Below, in pieces: positions 1 through 5,346 of a stretch of DNA of 5,346 nucleotides; positions within the stretch are counted from its first letter, which is position 1; each line of letters opens with the position of its first letter. Location of the stretch: the NCBI GenBank assembly GCA_964593165.1, contig CAZQGW010000052.1:1-5346 (forward strand). Direction: 5' to 3'. A program made the translations under genes and the position numbers. The stretch comes from an uncultured Candidatus Saccharimonas sp. (GTDB lineage: Bacteria; Patescibacteriota; Saccharimonadia; Saccharimonadales; Saccharimonadaceae). Under the pieces are notes generated by a model. It ran no database searches. It was given only the letters and a program-made list of their open reading frames with translations, and was not told the origin of the DNA.

Positions 1-64
1 CAACATTTGGAGAGATGGCTGGTTGGCCCTTCGCCCGGCCCTACTCCCACTCAATAATGTGACG

Positions 65-70: not shown

Positions 71-190
71 ATTCATTTTGTTTTCAGTTATATGGATAAC
101 ACGTAATAGTTATGTGAATGTTTTGTGTAACTATCCAGCTCGTTTTACGATGCGCATTTGTCAGCTAACTCGTTTATTTTCAATAGGGCA

Positions 191-568
191 ATGTTTGGAA
201 CTTACACGCTGTGCAACACGCACTCCGTCCTCAATGCGATTCGGAGTATCCTATATGGCAATCGAAGGGGGTGCATAGTGGTATTCAACAGCGGCAAGGC
301 ATATCACGGTTCTGTGGAAGTCAGCAACGGCAAACTGCATGGGCGCACAGGAATGACTGATTATTTCTTCTTTATCTGCCCGAAATGCGAGAACAACCAA
401 GTGTTGCGAATTCTTGAATACGAATTCAGAAATGGTGTGAAAACTGAAAGAAACGAAAAGAAGAAACCCCAGGAATTCTTTACGCTGGCGTTCCATATCT
501 ATTGTCCGAATTGTCAGTTAGAAGATTTCATAAAAATAGACAACAGCCATCAGTCTGGCGCACTGTAA
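191..568 (+). CDS. Hypothetical protein with two CxxC motifs (probable zinc ribbon). The start is uncertain.
   Basis: The frame is open from 158 to 568 and ends with TAA at 566-568. Position 158 is a TTG with no SD sequence. The first ATG is at 191, with a weak AGGG only 2 nt upstream. Another ATG at 353 would give a 71-aa zinc-ribbon-only product. The CPKC and CPNC motifs are about 50 aa apart (FFFICPKCENN ... HIYCPNCQLED) and flank a K/E-rich linker. The antisense ORF at 251-496 looks like a shadow. Confidence 0.5.
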   Translation: MFGTYTLCNTHSVLNAIRSILYGNRRGCIVVFNSGKAYHGSVEVSNGKLHGRTGMTDYFFFICPKCENNQVLRILEYEFRNGVKTERNEKKKPQEFFTLAFHIYCPNCQLEDFIKIDNSHQSGAL

Positions 569-599
569 TCAGATTTAGTAACACTAATAGCAATGCTTT

Positions 600-896
600 T
601 CATTTGCGGCCTTTCCATTCGAATGCTGCTGCTGCTGCGAGCTGCATGAGATAAATCAACACCATTACGCCGATTAACCTCTCAAACATTGCCCAGTCTG
701 CATGGACCACCAAGAGAATCAATGCAACAGGGATAGCAGTAACGATACCAGTCAGGAAGCAAGCGATAACGCCAATCACGCCGAAGTAATCATGCACTGT
801 CTCGAAACATGCAGCTAGTACTCCTAACGCCCCAAGCCCAGCCGCAATATAAACGAGTACGGCGCAACCCAATAGAATAACCCTGAGTATTCTCAT
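600..896 (-). CDS. Small integral membrane protein (98 aa, about 3 predicted TM helices)
   Basis: The ORF runs from ATG (894-896) to TGA (600-602). The translation is dominated by three long hydrophobic stretches (ILLGCAVLVYIAAGLGALGVLAA; VIGVIACFLTGIVTAIPVALILLVV; LIGVMVLIYLMQLAAAAA) and has a short basic C-terminus (EWKGRK). The nearest SD sequence (GGAGAG, 912-917) is 15 nt from this ATG but is correctly spaced for a 4-codon mini-ORF that overlaps the start (see findings). Confidence 0.6.
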   Translation of the reverse strand: MRILRVILLGCAVLVYIAAGLGALGVLAACFETVHDYFGVIGVIACFLTGIVTAIPVALILLVVHADWAMFERLIGVMVLIYLMQLAAAAAFEWKGRK

Positions 897-1030: not shown

Positions 1031-1480
1031 CTACGCTGCTGTAGTCTTCCGCTTTCGCGCTGCCAGCGCAGCGTCGATTGCAGCGTCTAACTCGCCACCC
1101 GTCGCAGCCGCTTTGATAAGCTGCAACGTTGTCACTAGTTCCTTCATGTTGGCAACCTGCACGGCGTTTTTGCCTGTGCTCAACTCCAGCTTCATTGCTC
1201 CATACAGCACTTCAAAGTTGATTTTGCCTGCGCTGTCAGTCCAGTACCAGGCTTTGATTCGCTTTGCAGTCTCCTTCGTAATGCGTTCGCCAGTTTCTTT
1301 GTTAACAGTCGTTTTGGGCTGCATCACTTCGTACTCACGCCCTTCGATTTGCGCACTTGCAAGCGCAATCTGCTCGTCAATACGAGCCGCAAGTTTTGCG
1401 CGGCGCTGTGGCACAGTTGCTTTTCCGTACTTGCTTTCCCGCTTGCATACAACAAACTTCAGCTTCTGTAGTGCGTTCAT
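1031..1480 (-). CDS. Hypothetical protein (149 aa): basic N-terminus, central WYW segment, Ala-rich acidic and basic C-terminal helix
   Basis: The ATG at 1478-1480 is preceded on the minus strand by AAGGAG with a 7-nt spacer (aaggagaaacacaATG), which is the best RBS in the window. The stop is TAG at 1031-1033. The translation looks like a real globular protein (KRIKAWYWTDSAGKINFEVLYG ... GGELDAAIDAALAARKRK). I vaguely recall similar proteins from proteobacterial genomic islands but cannot name a family with confidence. The 196-aa antisense ORF at 966-1556 is a shadow. Confidence 0.8.
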   Translation of the reverse strand: MNALQKLKFVVCKRESKYGKATVPQRRAKLAARIDEQIALASAQIEGREYEVMQPKTTVNKETGERITKETAKRIKAWYWTDSAGKINFEVLYGAMKLELSTGKNAVQVANMKELVTTLQLIKAAATGGELDAAIDAALAARKRKTTAA

Positions 1481-1609: not shown

Positions 1610-2167
1610 CTAAATCATTTCAGCAACAGCACGCAATATAGCGGGATTTGGCTGTACCGCTTTAGTAAGTCGCGTCTGCCCTGCCAAAACCTTAACTGCT
1701 TTAGTATTTGCACCGCGCACCAGCAATGTGTTAAGCCATGTTTGCCTTCCTGTTTTAGTTGTTCCTTCTATACCTGCGCGTTTATATATCGCTGTGAATA
1801 CCTGGGATAAGCTTGTTGGGCTAAATGCGTGCTGCTTTTGTGTGAAAAACAACGGCACACCTTTGTGCGTGTGTGCAACACAATTAAGGGTAGTTAACTC
1901 AAACTGTTCAGCAATATATGCTTGTAGTTCCTTCTGTAGTTGCTTCGGCAACACCAAAGTTCTATTTGGCAACTGAACTTCTGTTTTTACCTCTCCATTC
2001 ATATTCAATACATCTGGTATATCTAGTGCAGCTAGTTCACTTCTCCTAATGCCACTCATATGTGTCATTAACAGCAGCATCTTGTTTCTATTACCCCATT
2101 TGCCTTGATTGGAAGTACCATTTATTACTTTATCCAGCTCTATATCTGTTAGTACTTTACTTTTCAT
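1610..2167 (-). CDS. Tyrosine-recombinase-fold protein with only the catalytic domain and a degenerate active site (pseudo-recombinase). It is a paralog of the 3500-4075 product.
   Basis: The ATG at 2165-2167 has GAGGG 4 nt upstream, and the stop is TAG at 1610-1612. The product aligns along its whole length with the 191-aa recombinase (RNKMLLLMTHMSGIRRSELAALDIPDVL vs RNRMLVLATFYAGLRAIEVASLRYCDVL; QLQKELQAYI vs QLQKELAAYI; LFFTQK vs LFYTQK; TKTGRQT vs SHSGRRS; LAGQTRLTKAVQP vs CSGHKSLAAVQRY). Both conserved Arg residues are retained. The segment carrying the beta-hairpin Lys (KAWQTKGYE) is deleted. The first His is replaced by Lys and the second by Gln. There is no Tyr anywhere in the last 50 residues. 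Confidence 0.8.
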   Translation of the reverse strand: MKSKVLTDIELDKVINGTSNQGKWGNRNKMLLLMTHMSGIRRSELAALDIPDVLNMNGEVKTEVQLPNRTLVLPKQLQKELQAYIAEQFELTTLNCVAHTHKGVPLFFTQKQHAFSPTSLSQVFTAIYKRAGIEGTTKTGRQTWLNTLLVRGANTKAVKVLAGQTRLTKAVQPNPAILRAVAEMI

Positions 2168-2259: not shown

Positions 2260-2280
2260 AGGTGCGTTTTAAGTGCACGG
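2260..2280. repeat. Left copy of an imperfect 20-21-nt direct repeat (AGGTGCGTTTTAAGTGCACGG)
   Basis: It matches 2381-2400 (AGGTGCGCTTAAGTTAACGG) at 17 of 21 positions with one 1-nt gap. The matching blocks AGGTGCG, TTAAGT and ACGG are collinear. The two copies start 121 bp apart. Confidence 0.6.
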
Positions 2281-2287
2281 AGCTGTT

Positions 2288-2306
2288 GCCACATTGGTAA
2301 TGTGGC
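2288..2306. other. Perfect stem-loop GCCACATT-ggt-AATGTGGC (8-bp stem, 3-nt loop)
   Basis: The complementarity was read directly from the sequence. The element lies in the 221-bp gap between the HUH-like gene and the pseudo-recombinase gene. Neither strand has an adjacent U-tract, so it is not a canonical intrinsic terminator. Confidence 0.6.
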
Positions 2307-2330
2307 TGCTATGTGACACTTTTGGTTGTG

Positions 2331-2376
2331 CTAGCCCGACTGCTTTATCGAACCTGCGAACAAGGTATCGGGCTGG
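2331..2376. other. Long-loop stem-loop CTAGCCCGA-N28-TCGGGCTGG with an internal ACCT/AGGT helix
   Basis: Seven perfect base pairs form between 2333-2339 and 2368-2374. A G-U pair and a C-G pair extend the stem to 9 bp in RNA. The loop contains tandem CGAAC (2349-2353 and 2357-2361), TATCG twice (2346-2350 and 2366-2370), and a 4-bp inner helix (2352-2355 with 2363-2366). The element starts 13 nt downstream of the stop of the HUH-like gene. Confidence 0.45.
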
Positions 2377-2380
2377 CTAA

Positions 2381-2400
2381 AGGTGCGCTTAAGTTAACGG
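2381..2400. repeat. Right copy of the imperfect direct repeat (AGGTGCGCTTAAGTTAACGG), overlapping the stop codon of the HUH-like gene
   Basis: See 2260-2280. This copy covers the last codons (S-P-L-T) and the TAA stop (2389-2391) of the 2389-2898 CDS. Confidence 0.6.
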
Positions 2401-2898
2401 CGAAATGTACATGTGTTGAAACATGATGTTCTCGTCAGTACTGCCGCTCAATTTTCTAGTAATGTAGTTCATCCAGGCTCCACCACATTTCGCTTGTCCA
2501 AAATCAACAGCAAGGCTGGGTTTTCCGTCCGTGCTTTTATTCACATGTGAGTAGTACTGAATACCATCTGTGTGCTTGGCAACATCCTCAAACCGGTTCT
2601 TAATCTCCGTATCGGTAAGTGTTGCAGGAAAGCCATAGAACGCAAAGTGTATGTGTAGGCTGTCAATATCACGTTCATTATGAACTATTGGTACTACGCT
2701 TAATGGCTCGCAACCCTTTCCGTACTTCCACGTGTTTTTGCCCCATATCTGTCCGTTAAACTTAAACAAGAAACGCCTTGTTAACTGTTCAACTGCTTCT
2801 GGCGCGCGGTGTGTCCACCTTGTGTTAATTGTTGCCTCGTGTGTTACTGGCAACTTGAATAGCCAGTCTCGCAGTAGTGTTTGTTGTTTACTCTTCAT
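2389..2898 (-). CDS. Compact HUH-motif protein (169 aa), a candidate single-domain Rep, relaxase or Y1-type ssDNA nuclease
   Basis: The ORF runs from ATG at 2896-2898 to TAA at 2389-2391, with GGGAGA 12 nt upstream of the ATG. The motif order matches HUH endonucleases. The motif-I-like strand is HEATINTRW. This is followed by the spacer RRFLFKFNGQIWGKN ... LSVVPIVHNE. Motif II is SLHIHFAFYG (His-Ile-His, codons at 2647-2655). About 60 residues later comes the motif-III-like GAWMNYITRKL (Tyr codon at 2464-2466, Lys four residues on). The size is similar to IS200/IS605 TnpA and RAYT enzymes. The layout also recalls the HYH ... YLAK arrangement of inovirus-Gp2/YfjJ-like island proteins, from memory. 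The functional call rests on motifs only. Confidence 0.55.
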   Translation of the reverse strand: MKSKQQTLLRDWLFKLPVTHEATINTRWTHRAPEAVEQLTRRFLFKFNGQIWGKNTWKYGKGCEPLSVVPIVHNERDIDSLHIHFAFYGFPATLTDTEIKNRFEDVAKHTDGIQYYSHVNKSTDGKPSLAVDFGQAKCGGAWMNYITRKLSGSTDENIMFQHMYISPLT

Positions 2899-3006: not shown

Positions 3007-3219
3007 TTATGTGCCTAATTGTTTGTTGGTGTCCTTTTGCAGCTTTTGCTTTAACTCTTCATTACTTTTATTCGCGTTTGCAAGCTGCTCCTGCGCTTTG
3101 CGCACCCGCTGTGCGGCATTCTGCTGCTTTGCAGTGCTGCTAAGCAGCCTGGAGCTATTTAGAAGCTTTTGTGCTTGGGCTTTTAACGGGTTTTTGGGTA
3201 CTATTTGGCTTGCACGCAT
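3007..3219 (-). CDS. Small basic Q/K/A-rich protein (70 aa) with predicted coiled-coil character, possibly translated from a leaderless mRNA
   Basis: The ORF runs from ATG at 3217-3219 to TAA at 3007-3009. It has no SD sequence (aaatatatttatATG). The translation is low in complexity but protein-like (AQAQKLL ... QRVRKAQEQLANANKSNEELKQKLQK). The opposite strand is also open over the same span but translates to Cys/Phe-rich nonsense. The coding status is uncertain. Confidence 0.4.
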   Translation of the reverse strand: MRASQIVPKNPLKAQAQKLLNSSRLLSSTAKQQNAAQRVRKAQEQLANANKSNEELKQKLQKDTNKQLGT

Positions 3220-3226
3220 ATAAATA

Positions 3227-3499: not shown

Positions 3500-4075
3500 A
3501 TGCTAAAGCAAGCTAAGACGTTATCTAAAGCGGAAGTAAGACGCGTTCTTGATTATGTTGCAACCCGCCGGCACGCTGCACGAAACAGGATGCTGGTGTT
3601 GGCTACTTTTTACGCTGGGCTGCGTGCAATCGAAGTTGCAAGCTTACGGTACTGCGATGTTCTGGACAGCATAGGCAAAGTAAAAACTGAGATATGGTTG
3701 AAAGCTTGGCAAACAAAAGGCTATGAAGGGCGAATGGTATACGTGAACACACAGCTCCAAAAAGAGCTTGCAGCGTACATACGCGCAGTTCCAAGTGTGG
3801 ATGTGAACGCCAGGTTGTTTTACACGCAGAAACGCGGCGCCGGCGGCTTTTCAGCAAACACGCTGGTGCAGTTTTATCACACACTGTATGGTAAGGTTGG
3901 GCTAGCTGGGGCAAGCTCGCATAGTGGTAGGCGTAGCTTCTGCACAAACCTTGCAGCGAATGGAGTTGGTGTGCGCGTACTAATGGCTTGTTCTGGACAC
4001 AAATCGCTTGCTGCTGTGCAGCGGTATTTGGATGTGAACTGTGATATGGTGCACGCGGCGGTTGAACTGGCGTAG
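3500..4075 (+). CDS. Tyrosine site-specific recombinase with only the catalytic domain (191 aa, FimB/FimE-like architecture) and an intact active site
   Basis: The ATG at 3500 is preceded by TAGGAG (3488-3493) with a 6-nt spacer, and the stop is TAG at 4073-4075. The full catalytic signature is readable: Arg in AGLRAIE, Lys in WQTKG, His-x-x-Arg in SSHSGRRSF, His in SGHKS, and Tyr in AVQRYL. There is no N-terminal core-binding domain. The N-terminal HAARN ... GLRAIEV block resembles what I recall of FimB/FimE-type invertases, which are about 200 aa. Confidence 0.9.
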   Translation: MLKQAKTLSKAEVRRVLDYVATRRHAARNRMLVLATFYAGLRAIEVASLRYCDVLDSIGKVKTEIWLKAWQTKGYEGRMVYVNTQLQKELAAYIRAVPSVDVNARLFYTQKRGAGGFSANTLVQFYHTLYGKVGLAGASSHSGRRSFCTNLAANGVGVRVLMACSGHKSLAAVQRYLDVNCDMVHAAVELA

Positions 4076-4110: not shown

Positions 4111-5346
4111 TTAAAGCACTTCAATCGTGCCATCTGCATGTCTTCTAAAATCTGCAGCAGCACTCGTAATCATAATTGCATCGTTTAGGTGATAGTAAGT
4201 ATGCTCAATTTGCGAAACACTTGTGCCGCACATGTCTGCTATTTGCCGAAAGTTTAGTCCGCTCATAACGCGCTGCGTTACCATAAAATGACGCAGGCTG
4301 TATGGGACTAAATCGCGCGTTGCACTGTCTGGGATATGAGCCAGATTCACCATATTGTGGAAGTGGTATAAAAGCGCACGTTCAGTTAATGGCGCCTCTC
4401 CGTCAATGCTAAAAACCAAAGAGCTGTGTGTATCTGGTTTTGTTAATGCGCGTAGCCTTGTAAAATATTCTCCTCCACGGCATAAAAATACTCTGCTCTT
4501 TCTAACCTTACTTGTTTGTGCACGCACGTTTATTCTGGCTAAAATATGTTCTTCTCCGCCAACAGTTCTATTCTCAACAGTTACATCATTCCAGCGTAAT
4601 TGTCGTTGTTCTCCAACGCGTAAGCCGCTATTTGCTGCAACCAATACATAGTAACGGACAATTTCGCGAATCAGCTTTTCATCTTTATCAATTTGATTGA
4701 TACGCAATGAACAGTAGGTGCGCATTGCAGTGACTAGTTGTTTGTATTCATCGTTTGTAAATGTTGCACGTCTTATTGCTTCGTTATTCGAATCAAATTT
4801 TGGCAACCTCGAAAAATCAAAGCTGTCAATCAGCGTCTCGCCATTCCTAAACAAAAACTTCACACATGCATTAATTGTGCTTTGCTCGTTCTGAACAGTA
4901 ACGGGCTTTATGTTTGCATCTTCCTGTGTGCGACTAAAATAATAACTCTCACAATCTGTGCGCTCTAGCTCTTTTAATTTCGCATCTCTCCCAATAAAGT
5001 CTAACCAATGTTGCAAATGCGTATTTATTGTTGAGTATCGTCCACTTACTATTACACCAGTTACCACATCCTGCTTCCTGCGTTCTAAATACTTATCTAC
5101 TCCTTGTTTCGTTGTTAATGAAAAGTATGTCTTGCCATTCAACAAGTTACCGTAAAGTTCAAGATAAGCACTTTTCCCTTTATCAATCGCTGTTGCTTCA
5201 CTTCGAGTATGCAGACTCTTTCTTGCGTATTTGTTTTCTTTTGCAAGCCACATCCTAAAGTGCCAGTATTCACCGCGCTTATAAATAACAGCGTCATCAA
5301 AAATCGCTATTTCGTCTGCTTTAAAGTTCTTCTTCTTTAACGCCAT
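4111..5346 (-). CDS. int: Full-length tyrosine integrase (phage or island type, about 411 aa). Its ATG coincides with the window edge.
   Basis: The ORF runs from ATG at 5344-5346 to TAA at 4111-4113. The upstream region is not visible, so the true start could lie further out. The C-terminal catalytic domain shows Arg in NSGLRVGEQRQLRWNDV, Lys in TSKVRKSRVF, an R-H pair in VPYSLRHFMVT (the usual first His is Tyr here), and the Tyr nucleophile in SQIEHTYYH. The roughly 200 N-terminal residues (GEYWHFRMWLAKENKYARKSLHT ...) look like arm-binding and core-binding domains. Confidence 0.9.
   Translation of the reverse strand: MALKKKNFKADEIAIFDDAVIYKRGEYWHFRMWLAKENKYARKSLHTRSEATAIDKGKSAYLELYGNLLNGKTYFSLTTKQGVDKYLERRKQDVVTGVIVSGRYSTINTHLQHWLDFIGRDAKLKELERTDCESYYFSRTQEDANIKPVTVQNEQSTINACVKFLFRNGETLIDSFDFSRLPKFDSNNEAIRRATFTNDEYKQLVTAMRTYCSLRINQIDKDEKLIREIVRYYVLVAANSGLRVGEQRQLRWNDVTVENRTVGGEEHILARINVRAQTSKVRKSRVFLCRGGEYFTRLRALTKPDTHSSLVFSIDGEAPLTERALLYHFHNMVNLAHIPDSATRDLVPYSLRHFMVTQRVMSGLNFRQIADMCGTSVSQIEHTYYHLNDAIMITSAAADFRRHADGTIEVL

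Follow-up and report, generated by a model that had tools for sequence, protein, structure and literature searches.

A small HUH-type protein and its conserved 3' stem-loop element in a guaA-targeting island: a candidate minimal replication initiator

In replication (Rep) proteins of the HUH class the His motif precedes the catalytic tyrosine, whereas in HUH relaxases the tyrosine precedes the His motif. Replication initiators of integrative elements are known from the actinomycete element pSAM2 (RepSA) and from the relaxase-driven replication of ICEBs1. Both elements are mobilised by an integrase and have their excised circle copied by a rolling-circle-type nuclease, as may also hold for the guaA-associated island analysed here, but they are larger, encode transfer functions and use initiators of other families. 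The protein encoded in this island, here called HUH169, shares its motif set with the initiators of the Pfam family PF23343 (inovirus gene II protein, plectrovirus ORF2) and with microvirus protein A/VP4, i.e. a uuTu motif I, a central strand with the pattern HUHUUU and a helix with Yxx(K/R). These initiators are carried by ssDNA phages and have about 250-510 aa, so that HUH169 with its 169 aa is half to a third their size; it is encoded in an integrative island and has a single Tyr in place of the Y-x-x-x-Y pair of phiX174 A. Its size is closer to that of the IS200/IS605 TnpA and RAYT proteins, single-domain HUH enzymes of about 150-170 aa that act on DNA hairpins, but their nucleophile motif is of the transposase type and that of HUH169 is YxxK/R.

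The island as a whole can be compared with two further systems. SEs and GInts also contain several genes of the tyrosine-recombinase fold, one of them without the catalytic Tyr. They are organised as a tandem intA-tfp-intB-srap operon with a Tfp of > 550 aa and no HUH gene, whereas the additional recombinases of the guaA island have about 190 residues and are arranged around the HUH gene, and the identification of the island as an SE or GInt was rejected on this architecture. In small plasmids of the pIGRK/pHW126 group the layout is repR - oriT - mobK, and MobK of pIGRK, a tyrosine recombinase without DNA-binding domains, nicks the oriT located between the replication gene and mobK (PMC8152469, PMC6854812). 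This group shares with the island a replication gene, a structured non-coding site and a tyrosine recombinase that consists of the catalytic domain only. MobK (Tyr179) and the island recombinase Int191 (Tyr176) are similar in size and domain make-up, a likeness without established specific homology. RepR of these plasmids is an iteron-binding winged-helix protein without HUH and Rep_trans motifs according to its authors (PMC8152469, PMC6854812) and is therefore no relative of HUH169; as a candidate relative it was rejected. No pIGRK-type small plasmid occurred among the matches listed for Int191 (85 of 618 matching plasmid records).

The window, i.e. the whole stretch of 5,346 nucleotides that was analysed, has nearly the same extent as the island, which is 5.47 kb long and lies between two copies of a 15-bp sequence from the guaA 3' end (Table 1). 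This repeat, CTACTCCCACTCAAT, is present in two copies only in the assembly, and the contig extends for 216 nt past the window into the last guaA codons. Integrase genes next to the guaA 3' end together with a distant direct repeat were found here and in L002-L004, L007 and L011; in L002-L004 and L007 copies of the same 15-bp repeat enclose an island of 6.6 kb that has different cargo, and this 6.6-kb relative has 72-82% DNA identity to the island in the window. The GC content of the island is 43.7%, compared to 63-65% in the flanks. Starting from guaA the gene order is Int411, Int191 on the other strand, p70, HUH169, Int185, DUF6641 and two cargo genes, and thus the location of the HUH gene between recombinase genes given in the preliminary description was verified.

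Table 1. Coordinates of the features of the guaA island (window positions unless indicated otherwise).
Feature	Position	Strand	Description
attR core CTACTCCCACTCAAT	41..55	.	duplicate of last 15 nt of guaA
Zinc-ribbon cargo protein	158-568	plus	136 aa, variable cargo
Membrane cargo protein	600-896	minus	98 aa, three-helix, variable cargo
DUF6641 protein	1031..1480	minus	Pfam PF20346 at 5.3e-9; PHROG 31551 at 1.8e-23
Int185	1610..2167	minus	Int191 paralog; catalytic Tyr and both His replaced (alignment)
Conserved non-coding element	2262..2388	minus	directly 3' of HUH gene; candidate nick/origin site
Stem-loop B	2288-2306	minus	within 2262-2388 element
Stem-loop A	2330-2377	minus	encloses TTCGATAAAGC; ATAAAGC at 2342-2348
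HUH169	2389..2898	minus	intact ORF, ATG start, 169 aa
HUH169 motifs (by residue)	motif I T19-T26; HUH H82-I83-H84; nucleophile motif Y145-x-x-R148
p70	3007..3219	minus	small basic Q/K/A-rich ORF upstream of HUH gene
Int191	3500..4075	plus	catalytic-domain-only tyrosine recombinase; Pfam PF00589 at 2.4e-18
Int411	4111..5346	minus	full-length tyrosine integrase; PF00589 and PHROG 1; start codon at window edge
attL copy of CTACTCCCACTCAAT	contig positions 5508-5522		just outside window

The open reading frame of HUH169 and its translation agreed with the preliminary description, with EATINT at residues 21-26, HIH at 82-84 within SLHIHFAFYG and NYITRK at 144-149. Conservation was evaluated using 97 distinct family members, many of which are just 22-30% identical to HUH169. 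H82 and H84 are present in 97/97 members each and Y145 in 96/97, the lone exception being a gap, so that the three residues singled out for this check are essentially invariant. The motif-I threonine T23 (94/97) and W142 (95/97) are also highly conserved, and a basic residue is found three positions after the tyrosine in 96/97 sequences (R148 in HUH169, K in most others). Of the tyrosine with a nearby lysine that had been described, the tyrosine was thus retained; its conserved basic partner is R148 and not K149, because K or R is kept at this distance in all but one of the sequences. The close subgroup has THxATLNL as its motif-I consensus, the larger subgroup ALTLTLKQ. Glu, His or Gln occupies position 73, on the strand that neighbours the one with the HUH motif, in 94/97 relatives, and H73 of HUH169 is a candidate third metal ligand. 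Given the conservation of these motifs across 97 distinct members, they are no chance matches.

The arrangement of the motifs is that of Rep proteins. The two histidines have hydrophobic residues between and after them (H82-I83-H84-F-A-F) on a predicted strand (81-88), the Yxx(K/R) motif lies on a predicted helix (141-149) C-terminal to the HUH motif, and the threonine of the uuTu motif I is located on the first strand (T23). In the classical relaxases (MOBF/Q/P/V) the tyrosine would be expected N-terminal to the histidines; Y145 is C-terminal to H82/H84, and a conserved N-terminal Tyr was absent from the alignments of the 97 distinct sequences. From the motif order that had been likened to Rep proteins, relaxases and Y1 transposases alike, the Rep order (motif I, HUH, Tyr) therefore holds, and relaxases have the reverse.

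HUH169 itself had no match in Pfam, PHROG or NCBIfam at E <= 1, which includes PF23343, and none among PDB sequences at E <= 10, and in the absence of such a direct family match the case rests on its relatives. The indexed search with HUH169 identified three close homologs (61-74% identity), the exhaustive HMMER search of 1.84 billion representatives retrieved 21 relatives at E <= 1e-3, and the profile search yielded 182 relatives, most of them about 174 aa long. A metagenome scan identified 254 coding loci with relatives, 80 of which were fetched; the genome-collection scan with a narrower alignment recovered two species genomes only. PF23343 (REP_ORF2-G2P) was matched at E <= 0.01 by 38 of the 73 aligned relatives (best 6.2e-8) and no other family was, with scores of single relatives of 15-27 bits (most 25-27) compared to a curated gathering threshold of 27.8 bits. 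The Pfam link of HUH169 is thus transitive, since HUH169 is not itself a scored member. Aligned with phiX174 protein A, the family profile placed HIH opposite HFH at a non-significant E = 0.074, and the profile search against the PDB gave nothing beyond one spurious repeat match. DNA and protein searches of phage and plasmid collections with the window and the HUH protein gave no matches, neither HUH169 nor P0074 had a match among 72,556 plasmids, and across 50,697 phage and 72,556 plasmid records the family was absent except for one probably decayed copy on an Azospirillum megaplasmid. DUF6641 and PF23343 were not mentioned in the papers of the literature searched.

The AlphaFold model of HUH169, built on the family alignment (pLDDT 80.9, pTM 0.79), has the order beta1 (motif I), helix, beta2, beta3 (HUH), helix, beta4 and helix (Tyr), with motif I on strand 20-26 and the HUH motif on the central strand; the tyrosine is on the C-terminal helix. 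Searched against a library of predicted viral structures, the model gave 11 matches at E <= 1e-3 with a TM of about 0.5. All named proteins among those listed are rolling-circle initiators (microvirus Rep, gene A protein, ORF2/G2P-domain protein) except for one uncharacterised rudivirus protein. The fold search against the PDB produced nothing significant (best E = 0.04), and its weak matches comprised HUH domains (parvovirus NS1/Rep, RAYT, geminivirus Rep) amid generic ferredoxin-like folds; the RAYT structure 4er8 was matched at E = 0.057 and TM 0.31. The alpha+beta fold common to HUH proteins is therefore supported by the viral-library matches, those in the PDB being weak. As far as a predicted structure permits, the HUH fold proposed earlier is in accordance with the topology of the model, and those of its fold matches that reached significance were to Rep proteins of the rolling-circle type. 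The likeness to IS200/IS605 TnpA and RAYT proteins that had also been noted applies to size, whereas the sequence and fold links lead to the Rep class. There was no Y1_Tnp match, the gene is present in one copy in the assembly and the hairpin element is located on the 3' side only. Based on homology, conserved catalytic residues and predicted fold, HUH169 is very probably an HUH nuclease.

Hairpins had been reported immediately downstream of the HUH gene, and the sense-strand ssDNA of 2262-2388 indeed folds into two stem-loops (-22.1 kcal/mol; z = -3.35, with 1/200 shuffles folding as well), neither of which fits the pattern of an intrinsic terminator. Of the three hairpin regions originally listed it is this one that is conserved across relatives; the other two are without such support. 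Between the window and L002 the element is more conserved than the coding DNA, and its homologous core TTyGC..TC(A/G)ATAAAGC has an identical spacing from the stop codon in loci where the protein identity is 25%. The subgroup of the window additionally has a small downstream hairpin, the stem of which is completely different between loci. A consensus fold with compensatory changes was obtained for this subgroup from four distinct sequences only. Only some loci also contain the CTCTTGCT motif in inverted orientation downstream.

For the larger subgroup, 63 distinct sequences show a conserved element that starts at the stop codon of the HUH gene. Its stem-loop 1 contains an internal loop, and its stem sequences vary freely while pairing is kept; hairpin 2 has invariant arms (TTAAAGC / GCTTTAA) and a variable centre, and is followed in most sequences by a third copy, AAGCTTT. 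Across the 63 sequences 99% of the cells are paired, and compensatory double changes occur in 85 cells compared to 26.8 in shuffles and 3-9 with partners slid. G.T pairs (19) outnumber A.C pairs (3), from which it follows that the importance of the structure is confined to the sense strand, as ssDNA or RNA. No Rfam family matches the larger-subgroup element. At one locus (L069, about 2430-2480) that part of the cis element which forms the third arm (AATTGGCGAAGCTTTATCTAAATTC) occurs as an iteron-like tandem duplication.

A 174-aa HUH gene was also found on a T4-like phage contig (L102, 6663-7594) that encodes a major head protein, prohead protease, scaffold, UvsY and helicase. There the HUH gene and its two-hairpin 3' element stand by themselves, with the major head gene on one side and a small endonuclease gene on the other, accompanied by neither recombinase nor DUF6641, and 17 nt of the element recur in inverted orientation 126 nt downstream. 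Since this locus has retained the element together with the HUH gene but has no recombinase, the element is tied to the HUH protein and not to the short recombinase. The borders of this insertion are undefined because no related phage without the insert was available.

Among the recombinases of the island, Int411 has homologs with 83% identity in L002 and 43% in L013, and guaA always adjoins them. No protein of the island core is better conserved than Int191, with 49-54% identity in distant islands, and in the alignment its active site is complete (R..HxxR..H..Y, Y176). The dead and active groups of short recombinases were connected by hhalign with a probability of 100% and E = 2e-57; the catalytic loss in Int185 is old and maintained, as it is common to the homologs in L002 and L021, and Int185 is probably a DNA-binding accessory protein. 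The small protein p70 is conserved in the close subgroup only (54% identity in L002, partial match in L017); its region (3007-3223) is open on both strands, and the conservation as a protein in L002 concerns the minus-strand reading. Wherever the flanking sequence is long enough, DUF6641 adjoins the HUH gene, the phage contig being the exception; its model (pLDDT 82) had no PDB fold match. The two cargo genes of the window (158..896) were found in no other island of those compared. At the cargo position L002 encodes an N6/N4 methyltransferase and a BglII-type endonuclease (11950-13555), and the cargo of L013 is a HindVP-type endonuclease (10718-11785). No circular junction was seen, the contigs checked for relatives all showing the integrated form, and a search for empty sites by exact match to the guaA protein next to the island found no record.

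The bin that contains the contig (912 kb) has a GC content of 43.6%, similar to that of the island, and holds no other guaA, and the host flanks including the L010 extension have 63-65%. The contig (1-5562) is probably mis-binned and is likely to come from a host of high GC content.

In the larger subgroup with 174-aa HUH proteins the gene order is guaA, integrase, proline-rich protein, divergent DUF6641, HUH, short recombinase, 70-aa protein and cargo. HUH, DUF6641 and the short recombinase represent the constant core, which recurs in the 80 metagenomic loci fetched, and the backbone that also includes the large integrase recurs in dozens of loci. The HUH gene thus belongs to the core of a family of small mobile islands that is widespread and undescribed. 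Some of the relatives adjoin tRNA genes instead of guaA and some are arranged in tandem. In comparisons with the window, the proline-rich protein f171 of the larger subgroup was unrelated to the dead recombinase, and f70 was unrelated to p70. In L026, L099 and L016 the end of one island is followed by a further large integrase or a further short recombinase, which suggests tandem accretion of islands at one attachment site. The genome-collection scan recovered a 40%-identical copy in an Acidobacteria MAG. A rearranged copy adjoining guaA in an Acidobacteria MAG (L017, 1-2002) has the first 62 codons of the large integrase abutting the first 48 of the dead recombinase, the rest being gone, and its short recombinase-p70-HUH block is inverted relative to guaA compared to the window. 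A copy from a cultured strain is located by tRNA-Phe on plasmid pAB510d of Azospirillum sp. B510 (420339-435434; L104, 5340-20435) and comprises an integrase, DUF6641, a 63-aa ORF, a 153-aa HUH relative (hhalign E = 2e-5) and an IS1380 insertion. In this relative NLH replaces HxH, and the island copy is probably decayed; the best plasmid homolog of Int191 (44% identity) is encoded 12 kb away.

With regard to function we consider it somewhat more probable than the opposite that HUH169 is a minimal single-domain Rep-class HUH enzyme, a very divergent relative of the REP_ORF2-G2P initiators, that replicates the excised island. From the data above we infer excision, nick position, replication and metal ligands as follows. 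Int411 would insert the island at the guaA 3' end and would excise it as a circle by recombination of the two 15-bp guaA-end repeats. H82 and H84, probably together with H73, would hold a divalent metal, and HUH169 would cut one strand at the structured element directly after its own stop codon, the candidate nick site being the conserved TTCGATAAAGC in stem-loop A. Y145 would thereby become linked to the 5' phosphate at the nick, and the free 3'-OH would prime rolling-circle copying by a host helicase and polymerase.

The HUH chemistry and the evidence for a site in cis would be the same if HUH169 were a mobilisation relaxase and the adjacent element its oriT, with a helper conjugative system exporting the strand. 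The islands lack transfer genes of their own and occur in very different hosts, and hence need some transfer route; moreover, rolling-circle-initiator-like relaxases exist in the MOBT family (cited in PMC8152469). The order of HUH and Tyr is nevertheless that of Rep proteins and not of classical relaxases, and 169 residues are too few for a domain that interacts with a coupling protein. The island also already encodes another candidate relaxase in Int191, which is MobK-like in its size, its lack of DNA-binding domains and the site upstream of its gene, and no HUH169 homolog was found among the plasmids searched. We therefore regard a relaxase function as unlikely. Even less credence is given to a selfish single-strand cassette, IS200/IS605- or IS91-like, that consists of the HUH gene and its 3' hairpins and rides in the islands. 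Such a cassette would account for the isolated gene and element on the phage contig and for the strand specificity of the structure, and it would agree with the size of HUH169, which is that of a Y1 transposase, and with the weak fold match to RAYT 4er8. Against it, neither HUH169 nor its relatives matched Y1_Tnp or any other transposase family in Pfam, the HUH gene is single-copy and in a fixed syntenic position in the islands, unlike an insertion sequence, and there is no matching hairpin on the 5' side, the borders of the phage insertion being undefined.

The element by itself could also be a structure at the 3' end of an mRNA, or it could serve as site for the short recombinase, the gene of which follows it in most islands. 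Combined with an HUH-like fold that is retained but non-catalytic or directed at another substrate, as in a regulator or RNA-binding protein, the hairpins would be an mRNA stabiliser or attenuator or that recombinase site. The excess of G.T over A.C pairs suits RNA as well as ssDNA, the invariant arms and variable centre of hairpin 2 resemble a recombinase core next to a recombinase gene, and the NLH in place of HxH in the Azospirillum relative, probably decayed, also speaks for it. Yet a non-catalytic protein would hardly be expected to keep both His, the Tyr and the basic residue nearly unchanged across 97 sequences with 22-30% identity, and the element accompanies the HUH gene where the recombinase is absent; we consider this explanation very unlikely. 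A more speculative combination, which we likewise rate as a long shot, is that two DNA-cutting chemistries act in series: HUH169 would peel a single strand off the excised island, and the strand-specific hairpins next to its gene would then fold, like integron attC sites or the CTX phage attachment site, into the substrate of Int191, assisted by the dead paralog; the gene-plus-hairpin unit might in that case also be mobile alone, as on the T4-like phage contig.

If the reading of HUH169 as a replication initiator is true, it would be among the smallest Rep-class HUH enzymes and would have a natural, compact and well-defined DNA target, which would make it attractive as a minimal model of specificity in HUH enzymes and as a small domain for covalent DNA tagging. 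The islands themselves represent an undescribed family of 5-10 kb that combines an integrase, a replication-type nuclease and a catalytic-domain-only recombinase. They are common in freshwater metagenomes and ferry restriction-modification systems into guaA and tRNA loci of unrelated bacteria.
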